Shown here: positions 1 to 8,699 of the stretch, one piece after another
Layout of the letters: each line of letters opens with the position of its first letter
How positions within the stretch are numbered: the first letter of the stretch is position 1
The notes under the pieces: model-generated
What the model was told of the DNA's origin: nothing
The model's database searches: none
What the model saw: only the letters and a program-made list of their open reading frames with translations
Assembly: GCA_020148045.1 (NCBI GenBank)
Contig: JAHCRG010000006.1
Coordinates: 137,909 to 201,908, forward strand
Reading direction: 5' to 3'
Origin: Patescibacteria group bacterium
Lineage (GTDB): Bacteria; Patescibacteriota; Minisyncoccia; Minisyncoccales; GWA2-38-27
DNA length: 64,000 nt
Made by a program: the position numbers and the translations under genes

Positions 1-456
1 TTGGAGTTAGATAATCCGCCAAATTATGGATATACTTATTCAACAGATGAAAATCCCACAAAAGAAGAAGACCATACAATGGAAATTACCGGTCTTTTGT
101 CAAATACAACTTATTGCTATCGTTGTGTTTCTCATGGTTCTTTGGCAGTGAGCACAGAGCATAGTTTTACTACTCTTAGTGTTATAGGAGAACAAGAAGA
201 AGAGGAGGAGGAAGAGGAAGAAGAACTAGGCCCAATAGTAGGCGAGGAAGAAGAGGAAGAGGAAGAAGAGGAGGAAGAAGAGGAGGAGGAAGAAGAAGAA
301 GTTGTTGAGGGGGAAGAAACGGGACTGGGCTGGCTCTTAGCAGCAATCGGTGATTTGTTTAGATTGGAGAATCTCTGGTGGCTTTTACTACTTCTTATAA
401 TTATAATAATTATTTTGTTTTTGTTATCTCGTAAGAAGAAAAGAAAAGAAGAATAA
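1..456 (+). CDS. C-terminal fragment of a surface protein: FN3-like beta domain, poly-Glu linker, C-terminal TM anchor and KKKRKEE tail. The 5' end lies outside the window.
   Basis: The ORF is open from base 1. It has an LSNTTYCYRCVS...FTT motif typical of FN3-like domains, two long E runs, then the hydrophobic stretch LWWLLLLLIIIIIILFLL followed by basic residues. Confidence 0.6.
   Translation: MELDNPPNYGYTYSTDENPTKEEDHTMEITGLLSNTTYCYRCVSHGSLAVSTEHSFTTLSVIGEQEEEEEEEEEELGPIVGEEEEEEEEEEEEEEEEEEEVVEGEETGLGWLLAAIGDLFRLENLWWLLLLLIIIIIILFLLSRKKKRKEE
190..303 (+). repeat. GAA/GAG-rich low-complexity tract encoding poly-glutamate
   Basis: Direct reading shows two runs of gaa/gag codons, at 190-226 and 241-300. 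Confidence 0.9.
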
Positions 457-471
457 AAAAGCCTTTCTATA

Positions 472-500
472 CTGCCCGAGGCCCGTCCTCGGGCAGTTTT
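472..500 (+). terminator. Intrinsic terminator, copy 1 of a triplicated GC-rich hairpin
   Basis: ctgcccgagg-cccg-tcctcgggcag followed by tttt. Identical hairpins occur at 4210 and 5541. Confidence 0.8.
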
Positions 501-521
501 GGTATAAAAGGGGTGTGAGGG

Positions 522-550
522 TTGACAAAATTCTTAGGTTGTGATAAATT
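522..550 (+). promoter_or_regulatory. Sigma70-type promoter of the csgEFG-curlin operon
   Basis: TTGACA (522-527), 17-nt spacer ending in TGa, then TAAATT (545-550). Paralogous promoters lie at 4279 and 5585. Confidence 0.6.
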
Positions 551-575
551 ATAGAATATTTAATCCGAGGTATTT

Positions 576-622
576 AATCCGAGAGGATTGATTTTTATCT
601 TGGCGGTTCGTTTAAAACTTAA
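576..622 (+). promoter_or_regulatory. Conserved 5' leader element (small GNRA hairpin plus U-run), copy 1
   Basis: A 47-nt block, aatccgagaggattgatttttatcttggcggttcgtttaaaacttaa, is repeated exactly at 4343-4389. It contains AAUCC-GAGA-GGAUU followed by GAUUUUUAU. Confidence 0.55.
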
Positions 623-722
623 TTGGATAGAAAGTTAAAGAAAGGAGATGACAGTGAGAAGATAGAAAAAAAGGTAATTGTTGTTTAGAAAGCAATGTAT
701 AAACAAAGAAAGGAGAAAACGA

Positions 723-5852: not shown

Positions 5853-6671
5853 ATGGAAAAGAGATTGTTACTGTTAGTTGTGGTGCTTGTGGTGGTTGGT
5901 TTGGGGAGTTCTCCTGCTTTTGCCTTAGACCCGATGGGGCCTCCAACAGGGAACCTGAGACAGGGGCAGTCTCAAGCAGGGATTGATTACTCCTACAGCA
6001 CAATGGACCTTAAATTAACCAACGGTAAATGGACTGAGTATAAAAATGGAAGGTTTTACGACTCAGGAGAAGCGTTTTCCTTGACCCTCAAGAATTTCAA
6101 GATGAATAAGGTATATGCCAACTTTGGATATGGCATCTTTGACAACTGGGACCTATTTTTGCGTTTAGGCGGAGCAGACGCCAAATTTGGTGACTCAATC
6201 TGGGAAGAAGGAGAAAAATTTGATGGCCCGGCTAGTTTTACAATTGGCTTTGGTACCAAAGCAACCTTTTATCAAGAGGGTCCTCTCAAATTGGGCGGAC
6301 TGTTTCAAGCAAGTTGGGCTGATTTGGATGGGCATCTAAAAGCAAAGGACTGGGCTGACTCTGTTGATATTGAGCTTACTGAGATGCAAATCGCTATAGG
6401 CCCAAGCTATGAGCTGGCAGACGGTGTTTCTATTTACGGCGGCCCCTTTTTCCATTTCGTTAATGGCGATTTAGATGATAATTTTAGTGAGACGTGGAAC
6501 GGAGATGTCTTGAGTTCGAAATACTCCTGGGATATTGGTGAGGCCTCTACTTTCGGTTATTATATTGGTTTTCAGGGAGTGAACCTCACCGAAAACATTT
6601 TTCTCAACATCGAGTACCAGCGTACAGCATCAGCTGATGCTCTTGGTCTGAAGCTCATCTGGAGATTTTAG
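5853..6671 (+). CDS. Outer-membrane beta-barrel-type protein (OMP_b-brl / porin-like), 272 aa
   Basis: Signal peptide ending in PAFA. Alternating amphipathic strands rich in G, Y and aromatic residues. The C-terminal LKLIWRF ends in Phe, a typical BAM beta-signal. Confidence 0.6.
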   Translation: MEKRLLLLVVVLVVVGLGSSPAFALDPMGPPTGNLRQGQSQAGIDYSYSTMDLKLTNGKWTEYKNGRFYDSGEAFSLTLKNFKMNKVYANFGYGIFDNWDLFLRLGGADAKFGDSIWEEGEKFDGPASFTIGFGTKATFYQEGPLKLGGLFQASWADLDGHLKAKDWADSVDIELTEMQIAIGPSYELADGVSIYGGPFFHFVNGDLDDNFSETWNGDVLSSKYSWDIGEASTFGYYIGFQGVNLTENIFLNIEYQRTASADALGLKLIWRF

Positions 6672-6681
6672 TCAAAACTAA

Positions 6682-6720
6682 GCCGAGGAGGTAGCTATCT
6701 TTACCCCTCGGCATTTTTTA
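6682..6720. terminator. Hairpin terminator between convergent genes, at the compositional boundary
   Basis: gccgagg...cctcggc followed by atttttta. Confidence 0.65.
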
Positions 6721-6736
6721 TGAAGCCCGACTTCAC

Positions 6737-8467
6737 TTAATTCATCTCTATTTTGTAAACTTCTGAGTTGTTGAGAAGATGGATTGTTTTGTTGTCTGAG
6801 GAGATATCAAGATCTTTGAGATTATCAAATTTTTGGCTTTGGAATTGCTTGATGATTTTGCCTTTTTTATCAATAATAACAACTCTGTTTTTTACTGGTT
6901 CTAAAAGATAAAGATAGGGGATATCTGCTTTGGTTTTGATTTGAGTAATATTTTCTGGAAATGGGAAGAAATCAGGGATTATAGTTTCTTGAAAAGAACC
7001 AGCATAGTAGCGAAGGACTGAATTATCTTCGTTCAAAATCCAAACTGAACCGTCAACTGTCATTGATTTTGGCTCAGAGCAAGGGCCTTTATCTTTCGTC
7101 CATTTTTTAGGAGAGCCCCAATTTAGAGCCCCTAAGAGAGAATATTTAATAATCTCGCAAGTTTTTTTGTCTAAGAAGTAAAGATTGGAAAGGTAAGAAG
7201 CGGATAAATCAAAATTAAATTCAAATGAAGGTGGGTCAACAAGAGAGCTGGAAGGAGAAGAGAACAAGCTTGAATCCGGTTCATTTACAAGTTCGGGATT
7301 TTCAATCTTTTCTAATTTGTTTAAATTTTCCAAGTTTTCTTCAATTGATTGTTTTAAATCAATTATATCAGAAGTTTTTGTTTCGGTTAAAGGTAAAATT
7401 TCTTTCCAGGCCTCTTTAAAAAGAGAATTGGCTTCTTCTTCGTTTTTAAAAATTAAAAAGCTTTCTGCCTGATTAACTTTTTCTTGTATCTTAGCTAAAG
7501 AGGTTCTAATTTCTTTTTCTTTTCTTCCCACTGCTTGTTTAAAAATTAAAAATCCCAGGAGGAGAACAGAAGCTAAGACAAGAATCAGAATTAGCTTTTT
7601 CTTAATGTTTGTCTTGGGACGAAGTTTTTCTATTATAGGGCCTGGTGTAGGTATTTTTATTTTTGGCAATTTTATCTTTGGCAAATTTGGCTTTTTGATA
7701 ATCTTCGGAAGTTTAAAGGGAAATCTAATTTTTGGAAAGGAGAATTTCTTTTCGCTTTGAAAAAGAATCGCTTTGCCTCTTTTTGTTGGTTCTGTTTTTA
7801 CAACAGAGAGGAGGCAAGTCCCAGAAACTTTTGAGCCCTCGCCTTTAGTAAAAAGAGAAGAGGGTAAAATTTCTTTTATTTTTTTTCCATTAATATTTTC
7901 GCTTTGAGCGATTTTAGTCAATAGATTTTGCTGAAGGAAAAATTCAAAAATCTCCTTGGTCAAAACCAAGATTTTATCATCTTGAGTTAATTTGCCTGAA
8001 ACAACATTAAGAAAAATTTTCAAAGGATAGGGTTCAATTTCCCGGAGGTCTAAGTTTTTACCAATATCAATTATTTGTCCGGCTCTTAACAGCAAAATTT
8101 TAATATCGCCGGTTTTAGTAAAAATTAAATTAAAATCTTTTAAAGAAAAAACAGCAAAGTTTAAGTTTCCCAGCCAGCTGACATTTTCCTTTTTTACTTT
8201 TTCAGCTAAATATTCATTTGTTTTTTTTAAACTTTGCGAAAGAGCTTTTTCAGGAAATTTTTGGGAAAAAGTATAATAGCTTTTCTTGATAGCTTTAGCA
8301 ATATCATCTAAAAGTTTTAGATTTTGGGGCAGAACGTTCCGAAGTTCTCCAACAACGTATAAATTTCCTAGGTTCTTCTCGTAGATATTTTCCGGTTCAT
8401 AAATAAAACTGTCAAAGATTTGGTCTTCTTTTAGTTTAGGGTTAAAATGTAGTTCAAATACTTGCAT
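6737..8467 (-). CDS. Hypothetical membrane protein: N-terminal weak PP2C/SpoIIE-like region, central TM, C-terminal beta-rich domain
   Basis: Long ORF. I prefer the start at MQVFELHF (8467), because the longer ORF start at 8509 lies only 5 nt from tRNA-Val (8514). TM segment LILILVLASVLLLGFLIF. The functional assignment is weak. Confidence 0.6.
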   Translation of the reverse strand: MQVFELHFNPKLKEDQIFDSFIYEPENIYEKNLGNLYVVGELRNVLPQNLKLLDDIAKAIKKSYYTFSQKFPEKALSQSLKKTNEYLAEKVKKENVSWLGNLNFAVFSLKDFNLIFTKTGDIKILLLRAGQIIDIGKNLDLREIEPYPLKIFLNVVSGKLTQDDKILVLTKEIFEFFLQQNLLTKIAQSENINGKKIKEILPSSLFTKGEGSKVSGTCLLSVVKTEPTKRGKAILFQSEKKFSFPKIRFPFKLPKIIKKPNLPKIKLPKIKIPTPGPIIEKLRPKTNIKKKLILILVLASVLLLGFLIFKQAVGRKEKEIRTSLAKIQEKVNQAESFLIFKNEEEANSLFKEAWKEILPLTETKTSDIIDLKQSIEENLENLNKLEKIENPELVNEPDSSLFSSPSSSLVDPPSFEFNFDLSASYLSNLYFLDKKTCEIIKYSLLGALNWGSPKKWTKDKGPCSEPKSMTVDGSVWILNEDNSVLRYYAGSFQETIIPDFFPFPENITQIKTKADIPYLYLLEPVKNRVVIIDKKGKIIKQFQSQKFDNLKDLDISSDNKTIHLLNNSEVYKIEMN

Positions 8468-8513
8468 GATAGTTCTATTTATTATAATATATATAAAAAT
8501 GGTGAGCAATCTT

Positions 8514-8586
8514 GGGCGTATAGCTCAGTGGTTAGAGCGCACGGTTCACATCCGTGAGGTCTGTGGTTCAAATCCACATACGCCCA
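8514..8586 (+). tRNA. tRNA-Val (anticodon CAC)
   Basis: Hand-folded cloverleaf of 73 nt: GGGCGTA/TACGCCC acceptor, GCTC/GAGC D stem, CACGG-TTCACAT-CCGTG anticodon arm, TGTGG-TTCAAAT-CCACA T arm. CCA is not encoded. Confidence 0.93.
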
Positions 8587-8699
8587 CAATGGCATCATTA
8601 GAGTAGCTTTTTGGTTCTTTCACCAAGTTTCACCAGAGTTTACTCTCTGCACAATGATGTCAGCAAGCCCTCACACCAAAATTAGTAGTGTGACGGGCA

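Follow-up and report, generated by a model that had tools for sequence, protein, structure and literature searches.

A curli secretion cluster of Planctomycetota type as probable horizontally acquired hot-spot cargo in a Patescibacterium chromosome

We report that positions ~460 to 6720 of a 64-kb window (the whole stretch of DNA studied here, from contig JAHCRG010000006.1 of a Patescibacteria group bacterium), hereafter referred to as the island, carry a cluster of curli (type VIII secretion) genes together with a gene for an outer-membrane (OM) β-barrel protein. In all probability the island represents a horizontally acquired cluster of Planctomycetota type that occupies a hot spot for cargo genes. 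That it is a real acquired module follows from its deviant composition, the different affinities of cargo and flanks, and its presence or absence between conserved flanks. The curli machine itself is known; what is new is the setting, i.e. a phylum regarded as lacking an OM, an origin of Planctomycetota type, and a polymorphic site with a shared promoter-attenuator cassette.

Exact look-ups placed CsgG, CsgF, the barrel protein, a ClpB-like protein, FtsZ, CysS and PBP2 on one NCBI contig of 207,536 bp, where these proteins carry the label 'Patescibacteria group bacterium' (MBZ95778xx, locus tag KJA13), and the same gene arrangement is present on a 165-kb ENA scaffold; for the exact product of 62833-63276 no database record was found. 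The named relatives of FtsZ belong only to Patescibacteria, Candidatus Pacebacteria and Candidatus Nealsonbacteria. As part of the same well-supported explanation, the host is very probably a Parcubacteria/Paceibacteria-like Patescibacterium, with the island truly part of its chromosome.

The curli parts CsgG, CsgF, CsgE and curlin-repeat subunits are all present; the six island genes, including that of the barrel protein, lie on the plus strand as intact open reading frames (ORFs), and each product starts with a Sec-type signal peptide. The csgE gene (723..1508, readable also from a TTG at 678) encodes a protein matching the full Pfam CsgE profile (PF10627, 3e-25) over residues 171-271, scores 1.3e-18 against the NCBIfam CsgE model, which is below the equivalog cut-off, and has orthologues in the related loci L002 and L005 (see below). 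The product of csgF (1580..2014; Pfam CsgF PF10614, 1.6e-42) aligns to the E. coli CsgF structures (6l7a/6si7), including the N-terminal motif F-x-F-x-NP-x-FGG-x-P-x-NG, which occupies the interior of the CsgG barrel in E. coli. For csgG (2030..2950) the OM lipoprotein channel that had been predicted from the sequence is borne out: the protein has the lipobox LLSGC, matches Pfam CsgG (PF03783) at 2e-65 and, with the lipobox Cys in register, can be aligned over residues 13-281 to the structures of its E. coli counterpart (1e-72); its constriction loop reads KPHPAAVSFSTAV compared with KPYPAS-NFSTAV in E. coli. Two genes encode curlin-repeat subunits, both rich in Gly, Gln, Asn and Ala. Subunit 1 (3001..3978, 325 residues; Pfam Curlin_rpt PF07012, 5e-26) has 23 N-x-[AS]-x3-Q half-repeats at a spacing of ~11 residues, corresponding to about 11 curlin repeats, and matches the NCBIfam CsgB and CsgA models at 6e-38 and 2e-21, both below cut-off. 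Subunit 2 (4475..5380, 301 residues; Curlin_rpt, 1.7e-20) has 20 half-repeats at the same spacing (~10 repeats) and is identical to subunit 1 at a fraction of 0.60 of its positions. The NCBI annotation already covers these genes, with CsgG misnamed 'curlin'. We also note that CsgE has an N-terminal extension of ~150 residues (residues ~25-170) with several Cys and a charged linker, which is kept in L002 and L005 and absent from both the 172-residue CsgE of another locus, L003, and E. coli CsgE.

In the 1-kb profile the GC content of positions 1001-7000 is 0.40-0.49, compared with 0.31-0.43 (mostly 0.32-0.39) in the other 57 kb. Calculated per gene and per codon position, the six island genes have a GC content of 0.403-0.496 and a third-position GC content (GC3) of 0.361-0.518, while the 49 flank genes to the right of the island have 0.355±0.028 and 0.276±0.033, respectively, with a GC3 maximum of 0.357. 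Since the GC3 of each island gene is higher than that of any flank gene, the excess resides at synonymous sites and does not merely reflect amino-acid content. The correlation of tetranucleotide usage with that of the host is 0.75-0.76 for the island vs 0.87-0.94 for ten 6-kb host chunks, and the compositional break suspected in the original prediction is hence upheld. That native genes, without any transfer, owe their GC content to Gly/Ala/Asn/Gln-rich repeats or to high expression appears extremely unlikely: the curlin genes, rich in Gly, Gln, Asn and Ala, are the GC-richest in the island (0.49-0.50), but the excess peaks at third codon positions, is seen also for csgE, csgF, csgG and the barrel gene, and goes together with a phylogenetic affinity to Planctomycetota and with presence/absence polymorphism at the site (see below).

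The GC-richer segment had been taken to extend from position 1 to 6.7 kb; its right edge at ~6720 stands, but it starts at ~460, as the ORF at 1-456 is host-like (GC3 0.296) and kept in curli-less relatives. This ORF is the 3' end (plus strand) of a host surface-protein gene with an FN3-like Pur_ac_phosph_N domain (Pfam), a poly-Glu linker and a C-terminal transmembrane (TM) anchor; the gene is whole in L001 (384 residues), and homologues border the same site in the curli-less loci L076, L077, L079 and L088. The left limit (457..722, plus strand) comprises a terminator hairpin at 471-497 (ΔG -22 kcal/mol, z -4.7) followed by the promoter (522-550) and leader (576-622) of a first cassette, described below. 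At the right limit (6672..6736) the stop of the barrel gene at 6671 is followed by a bidirectional terminator-like hairpin (6682-6712; ΔG -20 kcal/mol, z -3.7) with a T-run that ends at 6720, in agreement with the convergent terminator predicted there, and then by a convergent gene (6737..8509, minus strand; GC3 0.274) for a host membrane protein of 576-590 residues. This protein, below called the 590-aa flank protein, served as the anchor for the site search and gave no match in Pfam and NCBIfam searches. The predicted tRNA-Val (CAC anticodon) is found at 8514..8587 (plus strand), at the same place in L002, and is separated from the island by this host gene. Both island limits thus fall in intergenic terminators, with a sharp GC step at each end.

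Related loci reveal how the site varies. In L002 (Logan DRR433233, 32.7 kb) csgE-F-G (CsgG 84% identical) and one curlin gene are directly followed by the right-flank orthologues, in the order 590-aa gene, tRNA-Val, CDP-alcohol transferase, 126-aa gene, ClpB-like, MraZ, MraW and PBP2, and L005 (ENA ERZ27247117) covers the left junction with surface protein, cassette and csgE-F-G (CsgG 91%). JGI metagenomes were scanned with the 590-aa flank protein, which yielded 40 loci that were sorted by tblastn with island and flank proteins. Two of these (L085/L086, JGI Ga0210018/17) have a short curli form, with CsgG 87% and the flank only 59-70% identical. The closest relatives, L074, L076, L077, L079 and L080 (flank protein 90%, ClpB-like protein 84-86%), have the same two flanks with other GC-rich cargo (0.42-0.51) encoding tetratricopeptide-repeat (TPR), prepilin-type, metalloprotease-like and other proteins, and L088 represents an empty site where the two flank genes are 95 bp apart. 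We therefore regard the island, as the original prediction had offered among its options, as horizontally acquired cargo that occupies a variable hot spot in the chromosome of Patescibacteria, which we hold to be highly likely given its deviant GC3 and tetranucleotide usage, the Planctomycetota affinity and the empty and alternative-cargo sites. With respect to the alternative cargo (L074:11872-15565, L077:11863-14376, L079:10929-14840), its genes include one for an Arg/Ser/Pro-rich TPR protein, which is also found next to a barrel homologue in L071 and L072, one for a zinc-metalloprotease-like protein and one for a 487-residue protein with a dockerin-like C-terminus. The prepilin-type protein matches DUF1559, which is typical of Planctomycetes, below threshold, and NCBIfam supports only its prepilin N-terminus (N-terminal methylation).

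The same junctions bear on whether a diderm fragment was stitched into a Patescibacteria contig, an assembly chimera that had also been considered in the original prediction and that is now hardly credible. A chimera would fit the sharp GC step at both island ends, and repeated cassettes do break de Bruijn assemblies, as illustrated by the Logan contig L115, which begins 304 bp 5' of the barrel gene. However, csg-flank junctions recur with diverged sequence (CsgG 84-91%, flank 59-76%) in unrelated samples and runs (L002, L005, L085 and L086), three assemblers agree on the window's own junctions (the junction between the barrel gene and the 590-aa gene recurs in L115, from the third assembler), the island limits lie within intergenic terminators, and a lineage-specific hairpin element is present inside the island.

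To trace the origin of the cargo, GTDB species representatives were scanned with CsgG using tblastn; the host genome itself was not among the matches. The closest CsgG homologues were from Pirellulales (69-73%), a Saccharibacteria-labelled metagenome-assembled genome (MAG; 72%), Gemmatimonadales (67%) and Sedimentisphaerales (66%), followed by Thermodesulfobacteriota, Nitrospirae, Calditrichia and Bacteroidota. In a neighbour-joining (NJ) tree of CsgG, the window, L005 and L002 group with 100% bootstrap support within a clade (70%) dominated by Planctomycetota, with poorly supported deep nodes, and the csgE-F-G order and multi-repeat curlins are likewise found on a Pirellulales contig. Together with the barrel protein, whose named homologues are all from Planctomycetota (52-61% identity), the nearest named relatives of CsgG (66-73%) belong to this phylum, while FtsZ in the flank is of Patescibacteria type only, a difference in best-hit taxonomy between island and flank. 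We suggest a Planctomycetota origin for CsgG and the barrel protein only. The GC3 of csgG is 0.30-0.42 in the low-GC Patescibacteria-like contigs (of which only the window contig has an NCBI taxonomic label), 0.44-0.67 in Planctomycetota and 0.28 in the host background, and the intermediate values are consistent with partial amelioration. When viral contigs were scanned with CsgG and the barrel protein, no match and thus no sign of a phage vector emerged. Curli genes are also present at another locus: in L003, a low-GC (0.37) contig, csgE-F-G (CsgG 76%) and a gene for a 430-residue curlin (6070-9449; local GC 0.42-0.50) lie between nifU/iscU-like and mnmA genes. L003 is taken as Patescibacteria based only on its low GC, gene content and host-like tetranucleotide signature (0.80), and if this holds curli would have entered the group more than once; for L009, Candidatus Saccharibacteria is the MAG label alone.

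The barrel gene (5853..6671, plus strand) encodes 272 residues with a signal peptide and the C-terminus ...LIWRF. It scores 8e-5 (23.2 bits) against Pfam OMP_b-brl (PF13505), below the gathering cut-off of 28.7, and membership is therefore claimed at the fold/superfamily level only; many of its homologues carry a precomputed PF13505 match. An AlphaFold2 model based on a 32-sequence alignment (pLDDT 84.6, pTM 0.78) has, after the signal peptide, 11 long β-strands and one strand of three residues. A Foldseek search of the PDB returned only OM barrels (Pla, OmpT, NalP, a Legionella porin and FapF) with probability 1.00 and a TM-score of just ~0.44. The claim of a β-barrel with a C-terminal signal for the barrel assembly machinery (BAM) is thereby strengthened, and the modelled protein is probably a generic OM barrel outside any characterised family. 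Homologues (80-83%) are present on L071 and L072 together with its terminator (the post-barrel block is 94% identical to L072, with the right-limit hairpin) and the same TPR gene adjoining, and the short island form in L002 and L085/L086 is without the barrel gene. As barrel gene and terminator thus occur with other cargo, they constitute a separate cargo unit and not an integral part of the curli system, and the window island is composite. Several relatives have a CsgG of about 460-490 residues fused to a C-terminal OMP_b-brl domain (L009:8096-9481; proteins P0056, P0060 and P0126). We considered that the barrel represents a split-off CsgG domain but rejected this, since it has no similarity to the domain fused to CsgG in L009. 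AbiEi/AbiEii toxin-antitoxin genes near the barrel homologues (L071:1-1214, L072:1568-2901) hint at a mobile or second variable region, although no integrase was seen and the scans of viral contigs were negative.

The island genes are arranged in three transcription units, csgE-csgF-csgG-curlin1, curlin2 and the barrel gene, each headed by a cassette of ~190 bp (from ~465, ~4200 and ~5535, respectively) that comprises, in order, a terminator hairpin TGCCCGAGGCCCGTCCTCGGGCA followed by Ts, a sigma-70 promoter TTGACA-17-TGnTAAnTT (TTGACA-17-TAAATT, 522-550, in the first copy) and a conserved leader. A long A/U-rich hairpin and then a U-run (ΔG -14 to -21 kcal/mol) are present in the leader of most copies, and where the stem differs from copy to copy the changes compensate each other (AUCAAU/AUUGAU to ACCAAU/AUUGGU, with G·U variants in addition), such that the leader looks like an attenuator. 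An Rfam scan of 1-9600 at E<=1 matched the tRNA alone, leaving the cassette without a known riboswitch or leader family, and the exact terminator hairpin of the cassette, GCCCGAGGCCCGTCCTCGGGC, was found in no genome but this one. Promoter and leader are also present before cargo genes in L074, L079 and L080 and on L071, with short cassette or post-gene matches on L072. Sites with the promoter (TTGACA-N14-TGnTAAnT) and ~60 nt of leader are at 522-650, 4279-4400 and 5585-5700 of the window and at L005:1970, and elsewhere at L074:15795(-), L079:14269(-), L080:~11500-11570(-) and L071:1659 and 10905. The leader may be an attenuator or antitermination leader common to acquired surface genes. The promoter grammar shared by the island and the rest of the window had been used as an argument against a chimera; it is that of sigma-70 promoters in general and by itself has no diagnostic value.

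A block at 2916-3204, which runs from the last part of csgG through the spacer into curlin1, recurs with 85% identity at 4390-4678, and a non-coding block following the curlin genes is duplicated as well. Judging from this, curlin2 is the product of an in-situ tandem duplication that left a csgG 3' relic upstream of it. The region between the curlin genes (3979..4474, plus strand) holds the post-curlin block with a hairpin at 4054-4083, terminators at 4133-4161 and 4208-4232, the second cassette (promoter 4279-4306) and the relic (4390-4424). That between curlin2 and the barrel gene (5381..5852, plus strand) holds the second post-curlin block with a hairpin at 5450-5479, terminators at 5483-5510 and 5540-5564, and the third cassette (promoter 5585-5612, leader hairpin).

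A second argument against a chimera in the original prediction was an exact 12-mer, TTGGTGTGAGGG, and we confirm its positions (4072, 4118 and 5468, the reverse complement at 8668 and a relative at 44191). It is one arm of a palindrome of ~30 nt, CCCyCAC(u)ACC-loop-GGUrGUGrGGG, which forms a hairpin element with two copies in the island (4054-4083 and 5450-5479) and two in host spacers, one at 8668..8697 with the reverse-complement 12-mer and one at 44191..44219 (ΔG -24 kcal/mol, z -4.65), where the neighbouring genes are ftsZ and one for a cohesin/Ig surface protein. Copies are also found 3' of the ClpB-like gene in the curli-less L077 (1618-1654), L079 (5189-5219) and L080 (1926-1956), with none in 200 shuffles and none in six scanned Planctomycetota and Thermodesulfobacteriota loci. 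Each copy folds (z -3.1 to -5.7) into a hairpin whose outer stem (CCCyCAC/GUGrGGG) is conserved and whose inner stem covaries, with a bulge of one base; the element may be REP-like, a terminator or a protein-binding site. Neither the element nor the exact 10-mer/12-mer is present at the equivalent sites of L002 or L005, and the element hence entered the island within this lineage; for the same reason we rejected the 12-mer as a conserved regulatory site common to island and flank, and read it as a hairpin arm. The copies at 4072 and 5468 occupy homologous positions in the tandem duplication and the copy at 4118, which matches that at 5468, looks like a local re-duplication, so the three island copies stem from one duplication and do not count as independent. 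What survives of the argument is that the hairpin arm is shared with host intergenic regions and curli-less relatives, and this we take as modest extra evidence that the island is resident.

The rest of the window and 18 kb beyond it encode MraZ/MraW/PBP2/Mur, DnaB, DnaX, CysS, glycolysis enzymes, pyruvate phosphate dikinase and ribosomal proteins, along with envelope proteins, i.e. type IV pilin-like, WxL, WxLIP+LysM, cohesin/Ig, and a TasA/camelysin-like and SipW-like cluster. Pfam matches identify a LysM+WxLIP protein at 36491-37687 and a WxL protein at 40036-40647, and with the C-terminal TM anchor encoded at 1-456 this substantiates the predicted display of host proteins by peptidoglycan-binding or monoderm-style devices. 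In the ~82 kb of contiguous host DNA, which is part of the genome, we found none of the BAM, Lol, Lpt, Lpx, TolC or lipopolysaccharide genes. On the basis of this ~82 kb we consider it improbable that, as in another option of the original prediction, the host belongs to a diderm clade so far not recognised as such, in which an OM or a similar layer is present and curli would be canonical and an ordinary accessory operon. Such a host would explain why a conventional OM β-barrel (signal peptide, terminal Phe) remains intact under a promoter of its own and why CsgG, CsgF and CsgE are under purifying selection, and the recurrence of curli at another locus in L003 and on the Saccharibacteria-labelled L009 hints at usability. 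However, besides the missing OM genes and the anchoring of surface proteins by WxL, LysM or a C-terminal TM segment, the short island form lacks the barrel gene and Patescibacteria are held to be without an OM (PMC12102498). Directly left of the window (L001:3416-8427) there are genes for three TasA/camelysin-like (Peptidase_M73) proteins, a SipW-like signal peptidase and a Lamin-tail-domain protein, and a monoderm- or archaeal-style fibre cluster thus adjoins the diderm-style amyloid system.

By analogy with the E. coli system, the curlin subunits of a horizontally acquired machine of this kind would cross the cytoplasmic membrane via Sec and be escorted by CsgE to the lipid-anchored oligomeric CsgG channel, the lumen of which would bind the conserved N-terminus of CsgF. 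Outside the cell the curlins would polymerise into amyloid fibres that would serve adhesion, e.g. to a partner cell or in a biofilm. The chances that fibres are actually made appear about even. CsgG is the least problematic part: the E. coli protein travels to the OM as a lipoprotein, and its insertion requires neither BamA nor TamA (commentary on Dunstan et al. 2015, PMC4973683), so that a missing BAM is not fatal for it.

Purifying selection on the island is suggested by comparison with L002, against which dN/dS is 0.31 for csgE, 0.14 for csgF, 0.28 for csgG and 0.32-0.43 for the curlin genes, with 0.09-0.33 for flank genes (0.09-0.19 without the divergent CDP-alcohol transferase gene); no frameshifts were detected in the six genes across all copies. 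Residence in the host is further argued for by the apparent post-acquisition curlin duplication, the cassette spread and the host-shared hairpin element.

Several points weigh against acquisition of a working and maintained curli cluster. Against L002, dS amounts to 0.34-0.66 in the island but reaches 0.78-1.7, near saturation, in the flanks, and the nearest relatives by flank are without the island. These findings weaken but do not remove the argument for selection within the host, and with a re-acquired or exchanged island, part of the selection signal could date from outside these hosts. In the CsgG constriction loop, the residue corresponding to E. coli Y51 is H, and N55 is replaced by S plus a one-residue insertion. 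No distinct CsgB-type nucleator can be told from a major subunit among the two 60%-identical paralogues, and integrases, transposases and flanking direct or att repeats were absent from the window, L001 and the island limits. A barrel of ~12 strands normally needs BAM, and a CsgG pore in the energised cytoplasmic membrane would be harmful. Finally, we infer both function and localisation, and OM genes were sought in ~82 kb of the genome. As to the separability of the subunits, CsgA and CsgB can be distinguished in Gammaproteobacteria only (Dueholm et al. 2012, PMC3521004).

The nucleotide identity to L002 is 82% for the island and 76-78% for the flanks, and the low island dS and patchy distribution suggest that the island is exchanged among related lineages or replaced in some. 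(For csgE/F/G against L002 and L005, dS is 0.18-0.66, two- to four-fold below adjacent host genes, with similar amino-acid identities, which points to the island having been shared more recently than the lineages themselves diverged.) It is accordingly conceivable, but in our view unlikely, that the island is a transient and essentially silent passenger from diderm neighbours or hosts that is soon replaced, with a selection signal inherited from donors: the closest relatives have other cargo at the hot spot and L088 is empty, island dS is below flank dS, the presence of the island is independent of flank relatedness, and the terminator-like leader hairpin at each unit could keep it off. Against this, the island is found at one and the same locus in four lineages (the window, L005, L002 and L085), whose CsgG sequences group in a clade with 100% support; no donor nearer than ~76% was found, and the six genes are free of frameshifts in all copies. 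Moreover, GC3 is partly ameliorated, and after acquisition the curlin gene was apparently duplicated in situ, the cassette multiplied and the host hairpin inserted.

Going beyond residence of the acquired cluster, a bolder version would be that the clade uses one hot spot to capture and express envelope and surface genes of a diderm, probably Planctomycetota, partner behind the common promoter-attenuator cassette; that the curli machine is functional; that the clade builds an OM-like layer or CsgG and the barrel go into the partner's OM; and that amyloid fibres or the CsgG pore mediate episymbiotic attachment or exchange. Taken jointly we consider these steps quite improbable.

Compared with the enterobacterial curli system (csgBAC-csgDEFG), the island shares CsgE, CsgF, CsgG and curlin-repeat subunits, with the CsgG lipobox and transmembrane hairpin regions and the N-terminal plug motif of CsgF kept, and like Bacteroidetes curli it is without csgC and csgD. 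It differs in that the host phylum is regarded as lacking an OM, the subunits have ~10-11 repeats instead of the five of E. coli CsgA, CsgE has the ~150-residue N-terminal extension, csgEFG and then the subunits form one operon where enterobacteria have divergent operons, and each unit has its own promoter-leader cassette. Curli homologues are widespread and horizontal gene transfer (HGT) was judged to be a minor player (Dueholm et al. 2012, PMC3521004), whereas the island described here was in all likelihood acquired through HGT and to that extent corrects the older view of HGT as a small factor in curli spread. Curli genes in Planctomycetota MAGs (Pirellulales L006/L007/L016 and Sedimentisphaerales L010) encode the closest named CsgG (66-73% by tblastn, 69-76% in the trimmed alignment) and resemble the island in gene order (csgE-csgF-csgG), in their long multi-repeat curlins and in GC content (~0.43-0.47); the carriers are diderm organisms, however, and L006 has a CsgG with a long additional C-terminal segment and curlin genes encoded on the other strand. 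A precedent for sporadic diderm-type envelope machinery is provided by the rare Gram-negative-type type IV secretion system (T4SS) genes in Patescibacteria assemblies, which were treated as independent transfers of unknown functionality into bacteria without an OM (Quiñonero-Coronel et al. 2025, PMC12102498). The T4SS is a different machine, and here junctions, a polymorphic site and purifying selection are documented. Our full-text literature searches returned no paper tying curli or CsgG to Patescibacteria. In common with genomic islands, the locus has foreign composition, conserved flanks, and empty and alternative-cargo alleles, but the sequence examined shows no integrase, transposase or flanking direct repeat, nor does the tRNA adjoin the island. 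Integron cassettes likewise form cargo arrays parted by repeated non-coding hairpin modules; here, however, the cargo brings its own promoter and leader while attC cassettes are promoterless, and no integrase was seen.

Patescibacteria are treated as OM-less episymbionts, and their envelope biology informs models of the diderm-to-monoderm transition. An intact OM secretion machine and an OM barrel at one locus, present in several low-GC Patescibacteria-like contigs and with signs of purifying selection, can be read in two ways: either diderm machinery is re-used without a conventional OM, which bears on BAM-independent insertion of CsgG, or these bacteria freely sample the genes of their partners. 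The Planctomycetota affinity of the cargo gives a testable hint at the physical partner of this uncultured lineage, and the polymorphic hot spot with its shared cassette offers a handle on how reduced genomes admit and control foreign genes.

Two host proteins in the window have unusual N-termini that are kept in relatives. The ClpB/ClpC-like AAA+ protein (9911-12412) has ~80 N-terminal residues predicted to be membrane-spanning, and FtsZ (44315-46057) has an N-terminal extension of ~100 residues ahead of the tubulin domain.

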